A DNA stretch of 62,665 nt, filler included, from an uncultured virus (IMG/VR IMGVR_UViG_2061766007_001450) (5 parts of one record of this genome joined end to end with filler, not necessarily neighbours in it); one strand, 5' to 3'. Positions 11,537 through 42,618 are shown, counted from the first letter of the whole stretch. Notes: generated by a model from the sequence alone, not told the origin. Numbers and translations: made by a program.

Positions 11537-12850
11537 NNNNNNNNNNNNNNNNNNNNNNNNNNNNNNNNNNNNNNNNNNNNNNNNNNNNNNNNNNNNNNNN
11601 NNNNNNNNNNNNNNNNNNNNNNNNNNNNNNNNNNNNNNNNNNNNNNNNNNNNNNNNNNNNNNNNNNNNNNNNNNNNNNNNNNNNNNNNNNNNNNNNNNNN
11701 NNNNNNNNNNNNNNNNNNTAGTTTCATTGAGTTTTTCTCCGCCGACAAACAATCGAAAGTTAGAGGCCCGCGCCGTGATATTCTCTATATAAACGAGTGT
11801 AACGCCGTTGATTTTGAAACATATTACCAATTGGCAATCCGTACAAAAAAAGTAATATGGCTCGACTTTAATCCCACGTCCGAGTTTTGGGTACACACCG
11901 AACTCGCCAACGATGCAGACGTGGAGACGCTTGTTTTGACCTACAAAGACAACGAGGCATTAAGCCCTATTGTCGTAAAGGAAATCGAAAAGGCAAAAGA
12001 AAAAGCGTTTTTCAATCCCGACGCGCCCGACCTATTCAACGAAAAAAACATCAAGTCCCCTTATTGGGCAAATTGGTGGAAAGTCTATGGACGCGGAGAA
12101 GTCGGCAGCGTGCAAGGCTGTATTTTCTCTAATTGGAAATTGATTGACAAAATCCCGCCTGACGCGGTGCGCCTTGGTATCGGTATCGACTTTGGATTTA
12201 CCAACGATCCGACAACGGCGATTGAGTTGTGGCGATACAACGGTGGCATTATCATTAATCAACTTTGTTATCAATCGGGAATGACTAACAGAGATATTGC
12301 GGCGATGTTGAAAACAAACAACATTCCGCCGTCAACTGTAATCGTGGCGGATTGTGCCGAGCCGAAATCTATTGCAGAAATAAACCAATTTGGNNNNNNN
12401 NNNNNNNNNNNNNNNNNNNNNNNNNNNNNNNNNNNNNNNNNNNNNNNNNNNNNNNNNNNNNNNNNNNNNNNNNNNNCACGATAAAAGAATACAGGAACTA
12501 TGTTTGGGAAACCGACAAAGACGGCAATAAGACCGGCAGAGCCATTGATGCGTTTAATCATTCGATGGACGCACTGCGATACATAGCAACGACNNNNNNN
12601 NNNTGCGGACAGCATCAACTTTGGTATTGGCGTTATTCAAGAGGTTGATGATATGAGCATCACGAAAGACAGCACCGAAACCATAAAGGAATACCGAAAT
12701 TATGTTTGGGAAACCGACAAAGACGGCAACAAGACCGGCAGAGCGATTGATGCGTTTAATCATTCGATGGACGCACTGCGATACATAGCAACGACCGTAT
12801 TGGCGAGGTATCAACAGAAACATTCACGCGGAGTGGTGCGGCGCAATTAG
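11514..12850 (+). CDS. terL: Terminase large subunit, PBSX-like (gapped, duplicated 3' end)
   Basis: RG-RRDILYINE, LDFNP, TYKDN, GIDFGFTNDPT, ADCAEPKSI, D-FNHSMDALRY. Confidence 0.9.
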
Positions 12851-12943
12851 TGTAATAAATATTTTACAAGTGTCGAAAATTCCCGATAGTGCGTTTACAA
12901 AATGTAAAGTAAGATTAAAAAACGTGTTTCACGTGAAAAAATA

Positions 12944-12975
12944 TTTGCAAGTGTGGATTTTTGTTTGTATTTTTG
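12944..12975 (+). promoter_or_regulatory. Bacteroidota-type promoter just downstream of the parS-like site at 12925
   Basis: TTTG 12944-12947, 20 nt, TATTTTTG 12968-12975; conserved in B near 16701-16732 (-). Confidence 0.6.
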
Positions 12976-13088
12976 TGCTATTCAAAAAACGCACATTGTA
13001 AATACTATATTTGGCTATTTGTTTTAATTGTTTTTCACAGACCCCTTTTTCATAGTTAAACATTAGTTTAGATTGAAGTTTAATTTTT

Positions 13089-13121
13089 CCGCCCTGCAAC
13101 CTGCAACGCGGGGCGGTTTTT
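13089..13121 (+). terminator. Rho-independent terminator
   Basis: CCGCCC-loop-GGGCGG followed by TTTTT; conserved in B (16575-16606). Confidence 0.7.
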
Positions 13122-13170
13122 AAAGAAAATCCACATATTCCATATATATTTGAACGTTGATTTATTCAGT

Positions 13171-13199
13171 CCCGACCGTCAAAAAGTCGGGATTTTTTT
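13171..13199 (+). terminator. Rho-independent terminator
   Basis: CCCGAC-N9-GTCGGG followed by ATTTTTTT. Confidence 0.7.
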
Positions 13200-13220
13200 A
13201 ACAAAATTTTCGTTAAAAAA

Positions 13221-13252
13221 TTTGGTAGTTAAATTTGTAGTGAGTAACTTTG
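13221..13252 (+). promoter_or_regulatory. Bacteroidota-type promoter of the candidate ncRNA
   Basis: TTTG 13221-13224, 20 nt, TAACTTTG 13245-13252; -7 box identical in B. Confidence 0.7.
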
Positions 13253-13271
13253 CGGCATACTCAATGACATA

Positions 13272-13473
13272 CACGTTCACGGGAAGCCTGGCCTCCGACA
13301 GTCCTTTTGGGGAGCGTCGGAAATCCGAGGGACTAAAAATACTATTTAGACCGTAGGAAAACCCCGAGTGGCGGCGATTGTATCAATGCCACTTTTTGCT
13401 TTGAGCCTGAGAATTGCCCGCAAGGCACACAGATAAATCAAGAGCCTTACCACAGCAGCGGAGCGGCGATAAC
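13272..13473 (+). ncRNA. Candidate structured ncRNA, long form
   Basis: Stems CCGAC/GTCGG, AGTGGC/GCCACT and TGCC/GGCA conserved with the B copy while loops vary; frame-breaking indels. Confidence 0.55.
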
Positions 13474-13718
13474 ATCAACGCTCCATTTTTGAAGACATTG
13501 CCAATCAGCTCCGGCGGCGAAGTTCATAGAGAGCCGAGCCGCCATTTTATTAAGTGTCGAATATAATTCCATTATAATGTTTCGGGCGGTGGCGACAGCA
13601 TCAAGACCGCCTTTGTTAAGGATGATTGTTTTTTTCATTTTAGATAGACATAATTAAGTTTTTAGAGTTTTTCAATTTTTGATGATGTGTTTACTAACAA
13701 GAGTAGTTAAGTGTTTCG

Positions 13719-13746
13719 GCGCGGTGTTTCCTTACCGCGCTTTTTT
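13719..13746 (+). terminator. Rho-independent terminator followed by a parS-like site
   Basis: GCGCGG-loop-CCGCGC followed by TTTTTT. Confidence 0.65.
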
Positions 13747-13887
13747 GTTGTTTCACGTGAAAAAATCCGCCCTTGCAAAACGCTATCCGCCAACGTATTG
13801 AAAAATTTTTTGAAAAAAGTTTCAAAAAGATTTGGAAATAATGTTACATTATACATATCTTTGCATCGTTAAACATAGATAAACATT

Positions 13888-14073
13888 ATGAAAGTAAGCG
13901 AATTTGCAAAAAAATGCGGAGTTCACGATTTGACAGTCCGAAGATGGATTAAAGAGGGCAAAATCGTTGCAACGAAAGTGCCGATTAAACCCTTTGTCCT
14001 TGCATTGGATATTGCAGACGAGGAACTCAAAAAGATATTGATTAAAAAACCCAAACAAGATGGCGAGCAATGA
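13888..14073 (+). CDS. Small excisionase/MerR-like HTH protein
   Basis: SEFAKKCGVH-LTVRRWIKEGKI; preceded by a TTTG...TATCTTTG promoter. Confidence 0.8.
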   Translation: MKVSEFAKKCGVHDLTVRRWIKEGKIVATKVPIKPFVLALDIADEELKKILIKKPKQDGEQ

Positions 14074-14703
14074 GTTAACATATATCGAAGTCGAGGACAT
14101 CAAGGAAACACCGGCGGCATCAGTATTTGAGCGGTGCGAAATACAATCAAAGTTTCTGACCGTGACGGCGTGGTACTTGTCCCACTTTGGAAAACTCTCC
14201 CCCGATATTTGGTGGGGCTATCAATTCGNNNNNNNNNNATCAGTGTTTGAGCGGTGCGAAATCCAATCAAAGTTTCTGACCGTGACAGCGTGGTACTTGT
14301 CACACTTCGGGCGACTCTCGCCCGATATTTGGTGGGGCTATCAATTCGCATATTATGCGCTTTGTCTTTTGCCGATTGTCGCCTTGACATTCAGTATTGA
14401 CGTTTTGGCGATGGTGATAAANNNNNNNNNNGATATTATGCGCTTTGCTTGCTCCCGATTGTCGCCTTGACATTCAGTATTGACGTTTTGGCGATGGTGA
14501 TAAAAGGCGCGGTCATAGTGGCAAAGGCTATTGCACTGAAAGCGATAGACCTTGCATTTATGGCGGCGGGCAAAGTTGCAGGCGTTTTGGGAATTGCATT
14601 TGCCTTATTCCTAATTGTAATGTTTTGTTACAACGAGGGATGGGAAGGATGCAAAGAATGTTACAAAAATATCGTTGAATGGTTAGGAAATGTGTTAAAA
14701 TAA
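14060..14703 (+). CDS. Membrane protein (gapped overlapping pieces)
   Basis: Homolog of 15366-15809 and 40772-41203. Confidence 0.65.
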
Positions 14704-14844
14704 TTTTCTTTGTGTTAGTAACGGTAGTTATGGCGGTTGAGGTGACTAAGGCGAAATTTTATGCAGATGTTACGGAATGTTTCACGCCGACAGCCGAAAT
14801 GGGAGAGCCTAAATATATAACGCTCCNNNNNNNNNNGTAATATG

Positions 14845-15390
14845 TTAATTTGTTTGTTGCCATTCTAATATGTATTGTTTCATTGCATCAAAATCGAAAT
14901 TGTTTCCGCAACACGATGTTTTGTTTTGCTCCCAGTCTTGATGCCGTTTGATGTTTTCTTTTTTGATTTTGTATTGGTAACAAAGTTTGTTTATCAAAAC
15001 AATAATCAAAACTTGTTGTTTTAAAGTCGGGCGCGTCTTGTTAAAATCTCCGTGAATACATATCCCGATGTTGCCGCCGTTGCCGTTCTTTACGTGTGTG
15101 CCAATTTGATGCTCGTCTCGACACTTGTAAATTTTGTTTTCGCTTATGTAGTAGTGGTAAGCAAAGCCGCTCTCCCACTTGCAACTGTCGCGGTGGTATC
15201 GGTCAATTTCGTTTAAAGTAGTCGGGCGGTCGATGCCGTCGTGATGGAGCGTTATATATTTAGGCTCTCCCATTTCGGCTGTCGGCGTGAAACATGTTGT
15301 AACATCAACGTAATAACGCGCCTTAGTAACCTCAACCGCCATTCCTACTATCAACACAAAGAAAACTATTCTGCACAATCTTTTACCCAT
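14845..15390 (-). CDS. N-acetylmuramoyl-L-alanine amidase with N-terminal signal/anchor
   Basis: Hydrophobic N-terminus; ITLHH, AYHY, GTHV, NIGIC-HGDF, HQDW, TSCCG (Amidase_2 Zn ligands). Confidence 0.85.
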   Translation of the reverse strand: MGKRLCRIVFFVLIVGMAVEVTKARYYVDVTTCFTPTAEMGEPKYITLHHDGIDRPTTLNEIDRYHRDSCKWESGFAYHYYISENKIYKCRDEHQIGTHVKNGNGGNIGICIHGDFNKTRPTLKQQVLIIVLINKLCYQYKIKKENIKRHQDWEQNKTSCCGNNFDFDAMKQYILEWQQTN

Positions 15391-15809
15391 TCAATTAAAT
15401 TTTTGTAACAATCTTTCATACCCTCCCATCCTTGGGAGTTGACGAACATTACTATCAAAAAGATAGCAAAAGCGATTGCCAAGATGCCGACAATCTTAGA
15501 CGCTGCCACGTAACAAAGATTGATTGCGAAATCAATCACTTTTAATGTTGCAGTCTTTATTATCAAGGCTGCGCCTTTTGTCAACATCGCCAAAAGGTCA
15601 ATCGCGAATGATAGCAAAAACGCCGTCGGGAAACAAATCACGTAATACGCGAATTTGTAGCCCCACCAAACCTCGGGGGATAACGTGCCGAAATTCGACA
15701 GATACCACGCCGACACTGTCAGCAACTTTGATTGTATATTGCGCCGCTCAAATGCTGATGCCGTGCCTGCGATTTCCTCAGCCTCTACGTATGTTAACTC
15801 ATTGCTCAT
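15366..15809 (-). CDS. Membrane protein, 2-3 TM (possible holin)
   Basis: Hydrophobic segments; overlaps the amidase start. Confidence 0.65.
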   Translation of the reverse strand: MSNELTYVEAEEIAGTASAFERRNIQSKLLTVSAWYLSNFGTLSPEVWWGYKFAYYVICFPTAFLLSFAIDLLAMLTKGAALIIKTATLKVIDFAINLCYVAASKIVGILAIAFAIFLIVMFVNSQGWEGMKDCYKNLIEWVKDCAE

Positions 15810-15966
15810 TTGGTATTACTTTTTTTAGTTCCTCGTCCGCTATTTCATAAGCAAGGACGAATGGTTTTATCGCTTTTTTTGTGGCGACGATTTTTCCCTC
15901 TTTAATCCATCTTCGGACTGTCAAGGGGTGAACGTGCGCCACCTTTGCAAACTCTGATATTGTCAT
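15799..15966 (-). CDS. Small HTH protein (55 aa)
   Basis: MTISEFAKVAHVHPLTVRRWIKEGKI; homolog of 13888. Confidence 0.75.
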   Translation of the reverse strand: MTISEFAKVAHVHPLTVRRWIKEGKIVATKKAIKPFVLAYEIADEELKKVIPNEQ

Positions 15967-16263
15967 TGTATTATATTTAGTTGTGTTTAACGATGCAAAG
16001 ATATATATAATATAACATTATTTCCAAATCTTTTTGCAACTTTTTTCAAAATATTTTTCAAAGCGTTGGCGGATAGCGTTTTACAAGGGCGGATTTTTTT
16101 CCACGTGAAACAATAAAAAAAGGCGCGGAAGGGAAGATGCCGCGCCGGTGAAACACTTAACTCACAAAGTTAATAAACACATCATCTAATTGAAAAACTT
16201 AACACTTATACTTATACTATTGAATATGTCAAATAAAACTTCTATAAAAAGGCGGTTTGGCTT

Positions 16264-16417
16264 GTTGCCGCGCCGCCGTGGTTGTGGGTCTTGGCTTATC
16301 TTGTGCCTCGACGGGCATTTCTCAGGGTCAATCAAAAAGTGGCATTGATACAATCGCCGCCACTCGGGGTTCCGACGCTCCAAAAAGATTGTCGGCGGCC
16401 AGGCTTCCCGTGAACGT
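16264..16417 (-). ncRNA. Candidate structured ncRNA, medium form
   Basis: Homolog of 13272-13473 lacking one hairpin insertion. Confidence 0.55.
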
Positions 16418-16852
16418 TATATGTTGTATGCTGCAAAGTTACGCACTACAAATTTAATCACCAAATTTTTTAATAAAAATTTTGTTAAAAAAAGTCCCGA
16501 CTTTTTGACGGTCGGGACGTGGTACAATAAATAATCAACGTTCAAATATATATGGAATTAGGACTTGTCATTTAAAACCGCCCTGCGTTGCAGGTTGCAG
16601 GGCGGAAAAGATTTCAAATCTGAAAATAAACCAAAAAGCCTAAAAAGTGAAAAAAACAATTAAAACAAATAGTATTAAAATGTACGTTTTTTGAATAGCA
16701 CAAAAATACAAACAAAAATCCACACTTGCAAATAATTTTTCACGTAAAACACGTTTTTAAATCTTACTTTACATTTTGTAAACGCGGTATCGGGAATTTT
16801 CGACACTTGTAAAATAGTTTTTACACGATAATTTCCATTTTGGAAATAGTCG

Positions 16853-17149
16853 CTAATTGCGACGTACCACGCCTCGCGAATGTTTCTGCTGATACCTCGC
16901 CAATACGGTCGTTGCTATGTATCGTAATGCGTCCATCGAATGATTAAACGCATCAATGGCTCTGCCGGTCTTGTTGCCGTCTTTGTCAGTTTCCCAAACA
17001 TAGTTCCTATATTCTTTTATCGTTTCGGTGCTGTCTTTCGTGATGCTCATATCATCAACTTCTTGAATAACACCAATACCAAAGTTGATGCTGTCCGCGC
17101 CCTTGACTGATGGCTGCACGTGATAGCCAAATTGGTTTATTTCTGCAAT
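16853..17149 (-). CDS. terL: Terminase large subunit C-terminal fragment
   Basis: DAFNHSMDALRY; matches 12604-12850. Confidence 0.85.
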   Translation of the reverse strand: MAEINQFGYHVQPSVKGADSINFGIGVIQEVDDMSITKDSTETIKEYRNYVWETDKDGNKTGRAIDAFNHSMDALRYIATTVLARYQQKHSRGVVRRN

Positions 17150-27202: not shown

Positions 27203-27479
27203 AGATAATCGGAGTAATATTGGCGATGATTGTTGTTGCCTTTGCCGTCAATATCTTGATGGGTGGCGGCGAGGTAACAAAGNNNNNNNNNNCAACGCCC
27301 GCATTGATAGCGTCCGCGCCGACGTTGCCAAGGTGTGGAATGTTTCACGCGAAACGAAAGTCAACACCGACAGCATCAAGGCGGAAGTGCGCACACTTGA
27401 CGGCAAGGTGGACGAAATAGCCAAAGACGTAAAGGAGATAAAAACAACAACACAGACAATCGAATTTAAATTATTCTAA
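27199..27479 (+). CDS. Small signal-anchored coiled-coil protein (gapped)
   Basis: MKIIGVILAMIVVAFAVNILMGG...TIEFKLF; copies at 18202, 29388-29573 and 38738-39035. Confidence 0.65.
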
Positions 27480-27481
27480 CT

Positions 27482-27997
27482 ATGGGGAAAGGTATGACAG
27501 GATGGTCATTAGCACCTACATACGAAGAGGAGAGAAATGAGGTTTATACAACTGCAATTTCTATCTTTGGTAAAATTGCATACGCAATATTCCGTTATGA
27601 GGATATTTCTGTAACAATTACAAAGAATATCTTATTGATGATTTTTGCGCGGCGAAAATATTTAGAGGTGTCAAAATTCTTGGACGCTTACGGGAATGGT
27701 CTATTTAGGCAACGTGTCTATTCTGTGCTAAACACACTTTATCAATGTAAAGTGGTAATAAGAGGGGCAGGATATACGTTTGGCATTTTCGAGACCTTTT
27801 ACCCAAAGGGTTGTGGCAATTTCGGCATAGGTTCTCTCAATGATTGTATGGAGAGCGATATTACCCTTAAATTCGACGATGATTTTAAATGTTTTATCGA
27901 AAATGCGGATAAATATGAATATGCAGGCGGTTATAATTCGCCAAGAGCGGTCAAAAAAATAGCGTTCAGAAGAAAACCAAATTCGGAAATCGTCTAA
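27482..27997 (+). CDS. Hypothetical protein in a variable slot
   Basis: 171-aa ORF between conserved flanks. Confidence 0.65.
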   Translation: MGKGMTGWSLAPTYEEERNEVYTTAISIFGKIAYAIFRYEDISVTITKNILLMIFARRKYLEVSKFLDAYGNGLFRQRVYSVLNTLYQCKVVIRGAGYTFGIFETFYPKGCGNFGIGSLNDCMESDITLKFDDDFKCFIENADKYEYAGGYNSPRAVKKIAFRRKPNSEIV

Positions 27998-28015: not shown

Positions 28016-28561
28016 ATGATACTCAAAATAATTTTGGCGGCACTTTGTGCAAACTTACTTTACACCAACGCGAATTTGATGTTAGCGGCATCGTCAGAGT
28101 TGGCAACGTGGCAATCGTGGATGATGGTTGTTTTTGCTATCACTTACAGCCTTATATCGACACTATCCATATTCAAGATGCAGAGCCTTTTTGCAATCGT
28201 CTGTTTTGCGATATTGGACGGCGCGGCGGTTTATCTTCACTTTGCCGATCACGGCGCAAACTTCAAAATGATTGTGGCGGTGTATTTCGGCATTTACACN
28301 NNNNNNNNNTGTTTTTGCTGTAACATACAGCCTTATATCCACGTTATCAATCTTTAAAATGCAGAGTCTTTTTGCAATCGTCTGTTTTGCGATATTGGAC
28401 GGCACGGCGGTGTTTCTACATTTTGCCGACCACGGCGCAAACTTCAAAATGATTGTGGCGGTGTATTTCGGCATTTACACAGCTTACACCTTGATTGTCG
28501 CCTTTGCCATCAAGCGCAATGAAGATGCAGAGGATAACGGCAACGAGGTTGAGGGACACGA
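28016..28561 (+). CDS. Multi-TM protein (gapped pieces)
   Basis: Homolog of 37514-38206. Confidence 0.65.
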
Positions 28562-28598
28562 NNNNNNNNNNAAAAACTTTACGACTTATGAATTTAAA

Positions 28599-29249
28599 AT
28601 GAAAGTTTACGGATATTTAAGGGTCTCTACGGACGACCAAGACGAAAACAGCCAAAAGCGCGGTGTTGACGAATTTGCGTCGAAAAACGGCTTGAAAATA
28701 GATGAGTACGTGATAGACCACGGACTGTCAGGTGCTAAGGAATTCAAAGACCGTGTCATCGGCAAACTCATAAAGAAGTTGCAGAAGGGCGACACCGTTA
28801 TTGCGTCGGAAATTTCGCGCATCGGAAGGCGACTTATCCTCGTTCTTGACTTTATCAAGATTTGCACGGAAAAGGGTGTCAACTTCTTTACGGTGAAAGA
28901 CCGCTATAAAATTGAGGACACGTTGCAGAGCAAAGTAATTCTTACTGTTATGGGATTGTGTGCGGAAATAGAGCGTGATTTGATAAGGCAGCGCACTTGT
29001 GAAGGCTTGGCAAGGGTAAGAGCAACAGGGAAAAAATTGGGTAGGGCGTATGGCGTAAGATGCCGTGTTAATCCCAAATGCGAGGCAATGTTTATTGAAA
29101 TAAATGCAATGATAGCCGGCGGAGTAGAAAAAAGCGTAATCGCGGAAAAAGTTGGCGTATCAAAAGCAACATTATATAGGTATCTTGTGTACAAAGGACT
29201 TTTTACAACAAAAAGCAAAAAGTTTCGGGAGACAGGTATATTTTACTGA
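28599..29249 (+). CDS. Small serine recombinase (resolvase/invertase family)
   Basis: YGYLRVST, D-G-SG, EISRIGR, AEIERDLIRQRT-EGL, GKKLGR, C-terminal HTH VSKATLYRY. Confidence 0.92.
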   Translation: MKVYGYLRVSTDDQDENSQKRGVDEFASKNGLKIDEYVIDHGLSGAKEFKDRVIGKLIKKLQKGDTVIASEISRIGRRLILVLDFIKICTEKGVNFFTVKDRYKIEDTLQSKVILTVMGLCAEIERDLIRQRTCEGLARVRATGKKLGRAYGVRCRVNPKCEAMFIEINAMIAGGVEKSVIAEKVGVSKATLYRYLVYKGLFTTKSKKFRETGIFY

Positions 29250-29632
29250 TAAGAATTATGAAATTCGAGAAAATAACGCTATCAGAGCCGCAAATAAAAT
29301 GGCTGCAAAAACATTTCAAACACACGAAAAACGATGTTATCCGTGAGCGTTTGGGATTGAGCCATTCTACACTTCANNNNNNNNNNTAACGCCCGCATTG
29401 ATAGCGTCAGGGCTGACCTTGCTAAGGTGTGGAATGTTTCACGCGAAACAAAGGCAAACACGGACAGCATCAAGGCGGAAGTGCGCACACTTGACGGCAA
29501 AGTGGACGAAATAGCCAAAGACGTAAAGGAGATAAAGACAACGACAAAAACGATTGAGTTTAAACTGTTTTAAATACGACAAAAAATCCGTGCATAGTTT
29601 CACGGTAGTAATAACATCATAATAACAAACAA

Positions 29633-34973: not shown

Positions 34974-35542
34974 TATGCCGCAATTTTGATTATCATACCC
35001 AACTTTTCNNNNNNNNNNNNNNNNNNNNNNNNNNNNNNNNNNNNNNNNNNNNNNNNNNNNNNNNNNNNNNNNNNNNNNNNNNNNNNNNNNNNNNNNNNNN
35101 NNNNNNNNNNNNNNNNNNNNNNNNNNNNNNNNNNNNNNNNNNNNNNAAGTCCCCAATTAAGACGTACCTCGTCCGCGTCTCTCGTTTTCCGCCACGATGC
35201 CTTTCGTTTTGCATTGATTACAGCCAATTGCGCGGGTGTCTTTTTCGATAAAGACCACTCGCCCTCTTTAAAGCATCTTTCGGGGTTTCTGTTTTGGTTG
35301 GCTTGCTGTCTGCGCCGCTCCTTTGCCGCCTCGTCCTCGGCTGCGATTGCCGCCTTGCCCGCCATTGATGCCGCCATCTGCATCTTCGCCATAAATTGCC
35401 GTGTTTTCTTTAATCCCAACTCTCGCGCAATTCTGTGAAGTGTAGAATGGCTTAGTCCCAAACGCTCACGAATAACATCATTTTTCGTGTGCTTGAAATG
35501 TTTTTGCAGCCATTTTATTTGCGGCTCTGATAGCGTTATTTT
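34973..35542 (-). CDS. HTH-containing basic protein (gapped)
   Basis: Copy of 37006-37517. Confidence 0.65.
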   Translation of the reverse strand, partial: KITLSEPQIKWLQKHFKHTKNDVIRERLGLSHSTLHRIARELGLKKTRQFMAKMQMAASMAGKAAIAAEDEAAKERRRQQANQNRNPERCFKEGEWSLSKKTPAQLAVINAKRKASWRKTRDADEVRLNWGLXXXXXXXXXXXXXXXXXXXXXXXXXXXXXXXXXXXXXXXXXXXXXXEKLGMIIKIAA

Positions 35543-38737: not shown

Positions 38738-39035
38738 TTAAAACAGTTTAAACTCAATCGTTTTTGTCGTTGTCTTTATCTCCTTTACGTCTTTGGCTAT
38801 TTCGTCCACCTTGCCGTCAAGGGTGCGCACTTCCGCCTTGATGCTGTCGGTGTTGGCCTTTGTTTCGCGTGAAACTTTCCAGACCTTTGCAACGTCAGCG
38901 CGCACACTGTCGATCCGTGCGTTTAATTCCTCGATGCGCTTGTCAAAATGCGCCCGCGTCACCTCGTCGCCGCCAATCATCATGTTAACGGCGACGGCGA
39001 TTATTACGGCGGCAATGATTGTTAATATTGTTTTC
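38738..39035 (-). CDS. Signal-anchored coiled-coil protein, 5' partial
   Basis: RIDSVRADVAKVWKVSRETK...TIEFKLF. Confidence 0.7.
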
Positions 39036-40269: not shown

Positions 40270-40805
40270 TCTTTCGTGTATATGTATTTCAACATTTGTT
40301 TCAAATCAAAGTTTTTGCCAGGGCAAGAGGTGTTATTGCCCGCCCAATCTCCGTGTCCCTTGATATTTTGTTTTGGGATGTCATACTCCCAACAAAGTTT
40401 GTTAACTAAACAAATCAACAAAATTTGTTGTGTGAGTGTCGGGCGGCTTTTGTTGAAGTCTCCATGTACGCAAATGCCAATATTGCCCGTGTTCCCATTT
40501 TTAACGTGTGTGCCGCGCTGCCTCTCGTCCCTTATCTTATAAATTCGGTCGGGCATTACGACGTAATGGTAGGCGATGCCGTACTCCATCTCGCAAGTGT
40601 CACGGTGGTAACGGTTGATTTCGTCGCACGTGGTAGGGCGGTCGACGCCGTCGTGATGTATCGTTAAAAAACGCGGTGTCGCCGTTATCGGTGACGGGGT
40701 GAAACACTCCGTCACGTCCTTATAGTAGCGACTACACAAGGCATCGACCAGAAACCAAACCACCGCCGCACTCACTGCGACGAAACGAAACACCTTTTTA
40801 ACCAT
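40266..40805 (-). CDS. Amidase with N-terminal signal/anchor
   Basis: LTIHH, AYHY, GTHV, NIGICVHGDF, GHGDW, TSCPG. Confidence 0.85.
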   Translation of the reverse strand: MVKKVFRFVAVSAAVVWFLVDALCSRYYKDVTECFTPSPITATPRFLTIHHDGVDRPTTCDEINRYHRDTCEMEYGIAYHYVVMPDRIYKIRDERQRGTHVKNGNTGNIGICVHGDFNKSRPTLTQQILLICLVNKLCWEYDIPKQNIKGHGDWAGNNTSCPGKNFDLKQMLKYIYTKE

Positions 40806-41203: not shown

Positions 41204-41360
41204 TTTTGATTACTTTTTTAATTTCTTCTTCGGGAATGTCCAAATAAAAGACAAACCCTTTCAATTGTTTGCGGTCGGCGGTTATCTTCCGCTCCCGTAT
41301 CCACCGCCTCACGGTCAAAGGGTGGACGCCGACTTTCTTTGCAAAATCTGAAATATTCAT
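41187..41360 (-). CDS. Small HTH protein (57 aa)
   Basis: MNISDFAKKVGVHPLTVRRWIRERKI. Confidence 0.75.
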   Translation of the reverse strand: MNISDFAKKVGVHPLTVRRWIRERKITADRKQLKGFVFYLDIPEEEIKKVIKNDTRS

Positions 41361-41793
41361 ATTTAATATATATTGTGTTTAACGTTGCAAAGATATATAT
41401 AATGTTGCATCAATTCCAAATTTTTTTGCAACTTTTTTCAAAAAAAATTACATTATGGCGATAATCAAAGACTTACAGACACAAAAAACGGCGATTTGTT
41501 TTGACAGCACAAATCACCGTAAAATAAATATGAATGTATATTTAGAGAAAACGCGGATTAAAAGAAAAGCGCGGCTTTCACCCCGCGCTCTGACGAAATA
41601 CACACACTCAATCAAACATGATTGTATGTAAAACACGATTTAATTTCTAACACGATGCAAAGATATATATAATGTTGCATCTTTGCAACTTTTTTTGCAA
41701 CTTTTTTCACGTGAAACATCATTTTTATATTTTATTTTACTTTTTGTCAACGCAAAGGCGGCATTTTTTGACACTTGTAAAATAAGATATACT

Positions 41794-42618
41794 TTAATTT
41801 CGACGGGTAACGCCGCGACGCTGCCTTTGGTTATGTTTTGCCAAAACTTTGATTGCAATATAGCGCAATGCGTCCATACAGTGGTTGAAGTCGTCAATGG
41901 GTCTGCCCGTCTTGTTTCCGCTTTTGTCAGTCTCCCAAACATAATTGCGATATTCTTTTATAAAATTCGTGCTTTCGCGGGTGATGCTGATGTCCTCGCA
42001 CTCCTGCAAAACGCTAATGCCAAACAATATGCTGTCGTTCCCTTTTTCGCTCGGTATGACTTTGAACCCGTACTCGTTAACCTCGTGTATGGATTTCGGC
42101 TCGGCGCAATCGGCGACAATCAAGGTGTTAGCCGTGCAGCCCTGGTGTTTCAGCTCTGCGGCAATATCTTTGTTGGTCATTCCCGTTTTATAACACATTT
42201 CGTGCAGATATACTCCGCCGTTGTATCTGTAAAGCCCTATTATTGCGGTGGGGTCGTTTATAAATCCAAAGTCCATGCCGACACCAAGCAACACCGCGTC
42301 CGTCGGGATAGCATCAACAAAATGCCAATTTGAGAATACACAGCCTTGTATGCTGCCGACTTCGCCCAGACCGTACACTTTCCACCAGTTCGCCCAATAT
42401 GCGCTTTTAATGTTGCTTTCAATAAACGGGTTGGATATGTCGGGATCGTAAAATGCGCGGGTTTTCGCCTTTTCAATCTCCGCAACTATGATGTCGGGGA
42501 GTGCCTCGTTATCTTTGTAGGTCAGTGTCAATGTCTCGGTGTCGGGGTCGTCTTTTATTTCAGTGTGAACCCAAAACTCGGACGTGGGGTTAAAATCAAG
42601 CCATATTACCTTTTTCGT
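41794..42618 (-). CDS. terL: Terminase large subunit, C-terminal half (divergent variant)
   Basis: LDFNP, GMDFGF-NDPT, DDFNHCMDALRY. Confidence 0.9.
   Translation of the reverse strand, partial: TKKVIWLDFNPTSEFWVHTEIKDDPDTETLTLTYKDNEALPDIIVAEIEKAKTRAFYDPDISNPFIESNIKSAYWANWWKVYGLGEVGSIQGCVFSNWHFVDAIPTDAVLLGVGMDFGFINDPTAIIGLYRYNGGVYLHEMCYKTGMTNKDIAAELKHQGCTANTLIVADCAEPKSIHEVNEYGFKVIPSEKGNDSILFGISVLQECEDISITRESTNFIKEYRNYVWETDKSGNKTGRPIDDFNHCMDALRYIAIKVLAKHNQRQRRGVTRRN

Follow-up and report, generated by a model that had tools for sequence, protein, structure and literature searches.

A candidate non-coding RNA unit between terL and a small HTH gene in rumen Bacteroidota siphophages

Does the intergenic DNA downstream of the terminase gene terL specify an RNA and, if so, of what kind? 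The question was raised by a prediction, made from a 62,665-nt stretch of viral DNA (here the window), of a conserved structured non-coding RNA at 13272-13473 (element A, + strand, downstream of terL), with the same motifs shared by a second stretch at 16264-16417 (element B, - strand). We examined the make-up of the DNA, the relatives of the element in public collections, its predicted promoter and terminators, its presence in RNA libraries, its coding potential and its fold.

With its 65 runs of N, the window is a scaffold full of gaps. It joins, in both orientations, three or more diverged and incomplete copies of a single phage module; the repeated genes encode an SSB, a ParB-like nuclease, methyltransferases, terminase, a small HTH protein, a 147-aa protein and an amidase. 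The DNA is that of rumen Bacteroidota siphophages, based on a portal protein 56-64% identical to the portals of Bacteroides, Parabacteroides and Alistipes siphophages, an excess of Bacteroidota-type promoters and the origin of the public runs that contain the stretch, which are cattle gut or rumen metagenomes from 13 studies. The promoter pattern TTTG-N18-22-TAnnTTTG has 23 matches in the window vs 2.87 expected, indicating that the phage uses the Bacteroidota promoter type. Many 70-310-nt stretches are repeated across 10-N gaps with 86-98% identity (for example 14119-14228/14239-14348 and 12478-12593/12680-12795), as would follow if the scaffold was assembled from several strains of one phage and not from one genome, which is probably the case. 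No tRNA or tmRNA genes were found in the window. Elsewhere in it, a serine recombinase/DNA invertase-like gene (28272-29249, +; PHROG 125, E 3.8e-44) is surrounded by repeated segments at 27294-27482, 29388-29576 and 38738-38923.

Every motif named in the original prediction was present at its place. The sequence ACGTTCACGGGAAGCCTGG is found at 13273-13291 in A, and its reverse complement at 16399-16417 in B. In A (+ strand) the other motifs are the stem CCGAC/GTCGG (13295-13299/13316-13320), AACCCCG (13360-13366), the stem AGTGGC...GCCACT with inner ATTG/CAAT (13367-13393) and the stem TGCC/GGCA (13415-13418/13424-13427), followed by AGATAA and GCGGC. The hairpin described as extra in A was likewise found, at 13325-13357, and is missing from B by way of a clean 39-nt gap. 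A and B lie within a 0.9-kb inverted match (12605-13467 vs 17098-16267, 79.8% identity) that extends into the terL 3´ end and into downstream genes, including the HTH gene, and they are on different N-delimited pieces of the scaffold (12604-14228 and 14837-17149), placed head to head through three N gaps. Given this homologous match and the separate pieces, A and B are best read as the same locus in two strains and not as two genes within a single genome. The likeness of A and B therefore reflects homology, not independent recurrence, and is by itself silent on function. The third copy of the phage module (~41250-41800, minus strand) is without the element and has a different short promoter-terminator unit at the same place, and terL is not followed by such a gap in Parabacteroides phage PDS1; this is the pattern of an inserted extra unit.

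In that third copy, the promoter region of the HTH gene is duplicated (41382-41440 and 41652-41709, 91.5% identity, minus strand). The upstream duplicate drives ~95 nt with a G/U-rich run and a GCGCGG...CCGCGC terminator, so that 41382-41709 (-) is another candidate small RNA in the same genomic slot.

Nine further copies were found in public contigs, giving 11 with A and B. Pattern scans of IMG/VR placed the element in three contigs, with chance matches making up 2 of 4, 41 of 44, 0 of 3 and 1 of 4 loci in the four scans, and a 22-mer anchor from the upstream terminator T2 (see below) retrieved the same three viral contigs. In a metagenome scan the element was present at 7 of 33 loci, two of them the IMG/VR contigs again, and in a scan of a genome collection at one of three loci, which belongs to a 44-kb contig assigned to a MAG. 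GenBank phage records gave no DNA match to the element, and a search with the 505-nt RNA against 400 further genomes of the order of the carrier MAG gave two weak short matches, taken as chance. Seven of the 11 copies have the long, A-like form and four the short, B-like form, the middle part of the unit being freely gained and lost among them. Across the 11 copies, which are all close relatives (85-95% alike), mean pairwise identity is 0.84-0.99 in the non-coding segments 13076-13425 and 13651-13875, with the exception of the variable P2 hairpin (13326-13350, 0.56), vs 0.7-0.8 in the flanking coding DNA. The high intergenic identity could reflect recent spread of the module instead of constraint.

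The claim that A and B both stand behind a conserved -33/-7 promoter was supported at the sequence level. The Bacteroidota promoter consensus described in PMC4747536 has TTTG at -33 and TAnnTTTG at -7, and in the housekeeping-type pattern that we applied, which both copies match, these boxes are about 19-21 nt apart. The predicted promoter of A (13221-13252, +) has TTTG, a 20-nt spacer and the -7 box TAACTTTG; that of B (16434-16465, -) has the same -33 TTTG/-7 TAACTTTG pattern. Among the 11 copies the -7 box is TAACTTTG, TAATTTTG or TACCTTTG, the variation being confined to the two free positions of the consensus. Upstream, two predicted terminators kept in all 11 copies separate the promoter from terL: T1 (13089-13121, +; CCGCCC...GGGCGG and a T run), which was partly caught by the terminator scan, and T2 (13170-13199, +; TCCCGAC...GTCGGGA and T7, with one loop change in the copy L080), which insulates the unit from terL. 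Downstream, the terminator scan found the strong predicted terminator T5 (13718-13748, +), which has a 9-bp stem with six G-C pairs followed by T6.

Six RNA libraries contain part of the stretch, and the contigs examined from four of them cover 13268-13745 almost exclusively. Contig starts were available from three cattle-gut studies (X15, X16 and X20): those of X20 are at 13268, 13271 and 13282 and that of X16 at 13275, all without loose ends, and a contig of X15, of variant sequence, starts at the equivalent of 13282. At the other side, a 446-nt contig of X16 spans exactly 13275-13717 and a contig of the fourth run, X17, ends at 13745. DNA contigs continue through the places where the RNA-library contigs start and end. 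Loose ends in X15 match the short variant, so both forms are found in RNA libraries. We treat this contig evidence as a weak hint, since the strand and the true ends of an RNA cannot be read from contigs, a contig may also end where strains differ in the assembly graph, and DNA contamination of RNA libraries is possible; the lack of cover at 12976-13227 and 13858-13983 in the four runs is likewise not counted as silence of terL or the HTH gene. With this reservation, the element is present in RNA-library contigs that start just behind the promoter, in keeping with the expression that had been anticipated for it. The RNA does not end at 13473 as originally predicted, since the contigs continue to 13717-13745, and the predicted element is the 5´ half of a longer unit.

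We propose a transcript of ~480 nt for A (13260-13748, +), which would extend from the presumed start as far as the T run of T5, and one of ~310 nt for the short variant B (16114-16428, -), which has hairpins P1 and H1 (16338-16364) and the equivalent of T5 (16114-16147), and is without P2, H2 and H4 (all described below). We infer that the RNA is read from the + strand because the left boundary of the contigs is 6-25 nt behind the expected promoter start and the right boundary is at T5, and because the minus strand is without a nearby promoter match or a left-end terminator: no -33/-7 match was found on the minus strand near 13640-13900, and no terminator for a minus-strand transcript at the left boundary. 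We likewise infer the exact RNA ends, partial termination and a trans-acting role. Overall, we consider it probable that a + strand non-coding RNA is made at the A locus.

A protein product was weighed for both strands. The statement that the element is non-coding on its own strand was upheld, in that no + strand ORF is kept among the copies; B lacks the + strand ATG at 13263, which precedes the starts of the RNA-library contigs. On the opposite strand, gene callers predict a 63-aa ORF (13447-13638, -), which we judged not to be a gene. It is unlikely that the product of the locus is a small minus-strand protein (a secreted or lipoprotein-like moron peptide) or its decayed remnant, with the RNA contigs as its mRNA, even though predictions of the ORF recur across many assemblies (34 protein clusters at E <= 0.1; seven of them, of 96-102 aa, cover nearly the whole 97-aa ORF of L080) and all variants have an ATG and then Lys-rich codons at the same minus-strand place. 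The predicted proteins are alike over their first 50 residues and then run through all three frames of the same DNA, and the 97-aa frame is open in one of the seven long variants, the others having stops or frameshifts. Indels are not clean multiples of three in five of the six other long variants; the three indel differences between B and the copy L001, which are net multiples of three and keep the minus-strand frame, speak slightly for a coding past. Within the 63 codons of A, substitutions number 10, 4 and 3 at codon positions 1, 2 and 3, and there are 13 non-synonymous changes (with two nonsense sites) vs 4 synonymous. The short variants have a hydrophobic stretch ending in Cys (GGLACIGLTGIPLAALVVGLSVC) that resembles a signal peptide, but no ATG is in frame with it, and the A run that precedes it varies in length. 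The minus-strand ORF has neither a Pfam or PHROG match nor a -33/-7 promoter near 13640-13900 nor a left-end terminator. The loop of the repeated hairpin module described below does translate on this strand into a recurrent peptide motif, G-[ILV]-D-x-[IV]-A-A; such a motif explains the fixed part of the module but not its stems, as the three hairpins are complementary with three different stems. No reading frame is kept among the homologues on either strand, and while a decayed minus-strand small-protein gene is possible, a working one is unlikely. The hydrophobic frame could also be taken as the toxin of a type I toxin-antitoxin pair like Sib/Ibs, with the + RNA as its antisense regulator, and in the short variants it is indeed fully covered by the + RNA. 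We regard this as very improbable: the frame is present only in 4 of the 11 copies and in none of the seven long variants, it lacks both an in-frame ATG and a match to a promoter on the minus strand, and in the copy L038 a stop follows immediately after the hydrophobic part.

As had been supposed, the RNA matches no known class: Rfam 15 gave no matches at the gathering threshold in the whole window. At E up to 10, the 11 matches in 12850-13900 were all far below threshold, the best being GcvB (21 bits vs a threshold of 42) at 13648-13748, a stretch that includes the G/U-rich tail. The proposal that the RNA is structured stood in part, as hairpins P1, P2 and H1 keep their pairing through changes on both sides, while the folding energies of A and B are ordinary vs shuffles (z -0.89 and -0.85). 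RNAalifold, run on 10 sequences (L062 was excluded, its 5´ half being identical to that of L004), draws a closing helix CGGG/CCCG (13280-13283 with 13363-13366, +), P1, H1 and a small UGCC/GGCA hairpin; it pairs CCUGGCC with the 3´ side of P2, which is not drawn as a hairpin of its own. By pair count, 97.1% of the cells in the 5´ half are paired, with both-sided changes in 3 of 42 pairs (one in P1, two in H1), and the RNAalifold covariation term of +0.76 lends no support.

The single parts of the RNA differ in how they vary. The 5´ segment ACGUUCACGGGAAGCCUGGCC (13273-13293, +) is identical in 10 of the 11 copies, L038 having CUCGG for CCUGG. P1 (13294-13321, +) has nine pairs, with 98.9% of cells paired, one pair changed on both sides (a C-G, U-G, U-A series) and three with wobble-compatible one-sided changes. 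The optional hairpin P2 (13325-13357, +), missing from B, is the least conserved part of the 5´ half (0.56); its segment folds as a hairpin in all 10 copies that have it, with three different lower-stem sequences. The small UGCC/GGCA hairpin (13415-13427, +) has a near-invariant stem and a loop of 5-6 nt and is weakly supported. Further downstream are H3 (13513-13549, +; GGCGGC...GCCGCC and AUUUUA), which is without the conserved apical part of the module and matches its model weakly (13.8 bits), and a G/U-rich 3´ segment (13651-13717, +) common to all variants, with a mean pairwise identity of 0.90-0.95 in the 11 copies. The one-sided changes in P1 and H1 give G-U pairs that on the other strand would be A-C mismatches, and thus fit the + strand only; the + strand also folds better than the minus strand in 8 of the 11 full-length copies.

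The multi-stem junction that had been envisaged for the 5´ half is unproven, since its closing helix never varies (it is identical in 10 of 10 sequences, an invariance that says nothing either way) and the folding energy is ordinary. B is without one arm of the supposed junction, which shows that P2 is not always kept, and AGTGGC/GCCACT, which had been counted as another arm, is instead the terminator-like hairpin H1. TGCC/GGCA, AGATAA and GCGGC are present as described but lie in the part that differs most between variants. Two further contacts were rejected: a long-range helix of 13274-13278 with 13402-13406, drawn by RNAalifold, is broken by both variable sequences without compensation, and a kissing interaction of the P2 and H1 loops is not kept, as judged by eye in A, L001, L004 and L080.

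H1 belongs to a hairpin module of which the RNA carries one to three copies. The module is found on the + strand at H1 and its U5 (13367-13398; 44 bits, two pairs changed on both sides) and, in long variants only, at H2 and its U run (13460-13491; 44.7 bits) and H4 and its UUUGUU (13585-13617; 45.7 bits); H1 of B scores 45.8 bits in the module model. The common design is a 6-7-bp stem, GC, GAU-NNN-AUC, AA, the closing strand and a U run, with a fixed 15-nt apical part between stems that have fully diverged. H1, H2, H4 and T5 all have the layout of an intrinsic terminator, a G+C-rich hairpin directly before a U run; the first three were missed by the terminator scan because their formal loop is 15 nt. 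One RNA-library contig crosses H1 to H4, so that transcription is not always stopped by these hairpins; the ends of shorter contigs lie at 13383-13419, although contigs cannot show RNA ends. The loop pattern GCGAYNRYATCAA has four matches in the window, all in A or B, vs 0.05 expected. In an alignment of 19 of the 25 family instances (six identical ones were dropped), 5 of 10 pairs are changed on both sides, in 22 cells, a value reached by none of 500 shuffles and compared with 0-2 cells in slid controls. A 26th loop match, at 40601-40636, was discarded, as it is within the amidase gene and forms no hairpin. The module model R1 finds the four window copies at 44-46 bits and nothing else above 19 bits, and against 150 further bacterial genomes, of the order of the carrier MAG, it gave two marginal matches of ~25 bits. 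One of these (L332, G018:C16, ~35034-35069, minus; 25 bits) has GAC-CAC-GUC for GAU-NNN-AUC in a hairpin with a U run, a change that would be compensatory in the apical 3-bp helix of the module.

The module also recurs in viruses with no other likeness to the rumen phage. A viral scan for the apical part and a T run gave at least 120 loci; among those listed, six (five distinct) have at least six of seven flanking pairs, where ~1.6 are expected by chance, and a scan for GGCGATAGCATCAA gave 115 matches, again six with at least six of seven pairs. L283 and L286 were dropped, having no further complementarity by eye. The unrelated viral contigs with the module (L125, L126, L142/L157, L148, L169, L221, L244, L250 and L284; 25-54% G+C) carry the apical GGCGAU-WRY-AUCAA flanked by unrelated stem sequences, and in most of them a T run follows. 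These instances were selected by pairing, so the pair statistics of their alignment are circular and are not used as evidence. In 8 of 9 cases the hairpin is 14-50 nt behind the stop of a same-strand ORF of at least 80 aa; there is no common upstream gene, those found being genes for major tail proteins, SSB and unknowns, and one hairpin precedes an apparent sigma-70-type promoter. A literature search did not find the module loop sequence. We regard this recurrence in unrelated phages as a real but unexplained lead. More speculatively, and with considerable doubt on our part, the undescribed module may serve phages widely as a signal that a conserved factor recognizes, with the rumen RNA as a dedicated decoy or platform for this factor; the role of such a signal would be in termination control, RNA stability or protein capture.

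Phage morons are extra promoter-gene-terminator units between conserved phage genes, a concept of Hendrix and colleagues. The unit described here has a predicted promoter and terminator and is present or absent among relatives at the same site. It resembles morons in having its own promoter and terminators, in its site between conserved genes and in its absence from related genomes, and differs from them in that morons encode protein, whereas its product is apparently RNA. We lean toward the reading that this is an autonomous non-coding unit between terL and the small HTH gene that encodes a trans-acting moron RNA, with much lower confidence in the trans-acting role than in the RNA itself. The host-type promoter at 13221-13252 would start an RNA near 13260 that consists, in order, of the invariant single-stranded 5´ segment, P1, P2, one to three module hairpins, the G/U-rich tail and the terminator at 13718-13748. 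Some transcripts may stop at the first module, giving ~135 nt, with the rest reaching the last terminator and a full-length product of ~480 nt for A and ~310 nt for B. The unit would then be a phage moron encoding RNA instead of protein, possibly regulatory in trans, by base pairing through the invariant 5´ or the G/U-rich 3´ segment or by protein binding through the module. Judged by their invariance (identity of at least 0.9 vs 0.7-0.8 in the neighboring genes), the best candidates for functional parts are the unpaired 5´ segment, the stretch behind H1, the G/U-rich tail and the apical part of the module. A k-mer scan of the window for complementary targets of at least 11 nt returned only copy B and scattered 11-13-mers. 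Pairing of the module loop with gene starts was set aside, as its complement was found only as the opposite strand of the hairpins and in two one-mismatch matches.

The main functional rival to this trans-acting RNA is termination control in cis, in which the unit would be a leader (a riboswitch, a protein-dependent attenuator or a put-like antitermination element) governing read-through into the HTH, 147-aa protein and amidase genes. The arrangement of a promoter, two hairpins and up to five U-run hairpins in series ahead of same-strand genes is what such a leader would look like, one RNA-library contig does pass H1 to H4, and the conservation of the module's apical part hints at a factor that recognizes it. 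We nevertheless think a cis-acting leader improbable, because the HTH gene has its own predicted promoter (13831-13863, +), preceded by a palindrome found phage-wide, inspection by eye gave no convincing alternative pairing of the 5´ domain with H1, the RNA matches none of the known riboswitch or leader families, and B without P2, as well as the short variants without H2 and H4, are still kept and expressed. It could also be that the locus has no function of its own and is a set of stacked terminators with a stray promoter in a recombination-prone intergenic region that has recently spread. The close likeness of the copies, the free gain and loss of the middle part, the ordinary folding energy and the other small promoter-terminator units of the region would all be explained in this way. 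We consider this quite improbable, however, given that the intergenic identity is above that of the flanking genes, the promoter varies at its free positions only, stem changes are compensated while the 15-nt apical part stays fixed, and RNA is found in the libraries of several studies.

Like the phage and prophage sRNAs DicF, IpeX and lambda oop, and like the intergenic sRNAs of Bacteroides thetaiotaomicron as described in PMC10994844, the unit is a promoter-to-terminator RNA gene with conserved unpaired segments that are potential seeds; it differs from them in being longer (310-480 nt), in sharing no common sequence with them and in having internal terminator-like hairpins. The HK022 put RNA similarly has two stem-loops behind a promoter, followed by terminators that some transcripts pass, but it has no sequence likeness to the unit, whose downstream gene has its own promoter; no read-through from the unit into downstream genes was seen in the RNA-library contigs. 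The sponge RNAs CsrB and RsmZ are comparable in presenting a fixed apical sequence on repeated hairpins (one to three in the unit) with differing stems. Their apical motif is GGA, however, whereas the apical part of the unit is different, its hairpins have U runs and its short variants have one copy. ROOL and GOLLD RNAs are also phage-borne, found in rumen samples and several hundred bases long; their models are unmatched here, and the unit has far less structure and covariation. In kind, the unit is closest to phage-encoded sRNAs, while the hairpin module may be newer.

The candidate offers a clear predicted promoter, testable ends and, across several sets of cattle-gut RNA data, signs that it is expressed; its natural long and short variants serve as ready-made deletion mutants. 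To our knowledge, very little work has been done on regulatory RNAs in Bacteroidota phages, and no genetic system exists for rumen phages. If the recurrence of the module holds, it would be a small testable RNA signal that reaches beyond one phage lineage.

Two features of the surrounding DNA were also noted. The palindrome TTTCACGTGAAA, located behind T5 at 13751-13762, has 31 sites in the window at up to one mismatch vs 0.55 expected (for example 12927-12938, 16099-16110 and 41705-41716). Some copies are within ~80 nt upstream of Bacteroidota-type promoters, and the palindrome is likely the operator of a phage-wide regulator; none is near the promoters of A or B, which suggests that their regulation is separate from that of much of the phage. 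In addition, another promoter match at 12944-12975, with the palindrome 6 nt upstream, is followed ~115 nt later by terminator T1. The segment 12944-13121 (+), and its counterpart at 16565-16732 (-), may constitute a second short transcription unit behind terL, with a conservation of 0.7-0.8, below that of the A unit.
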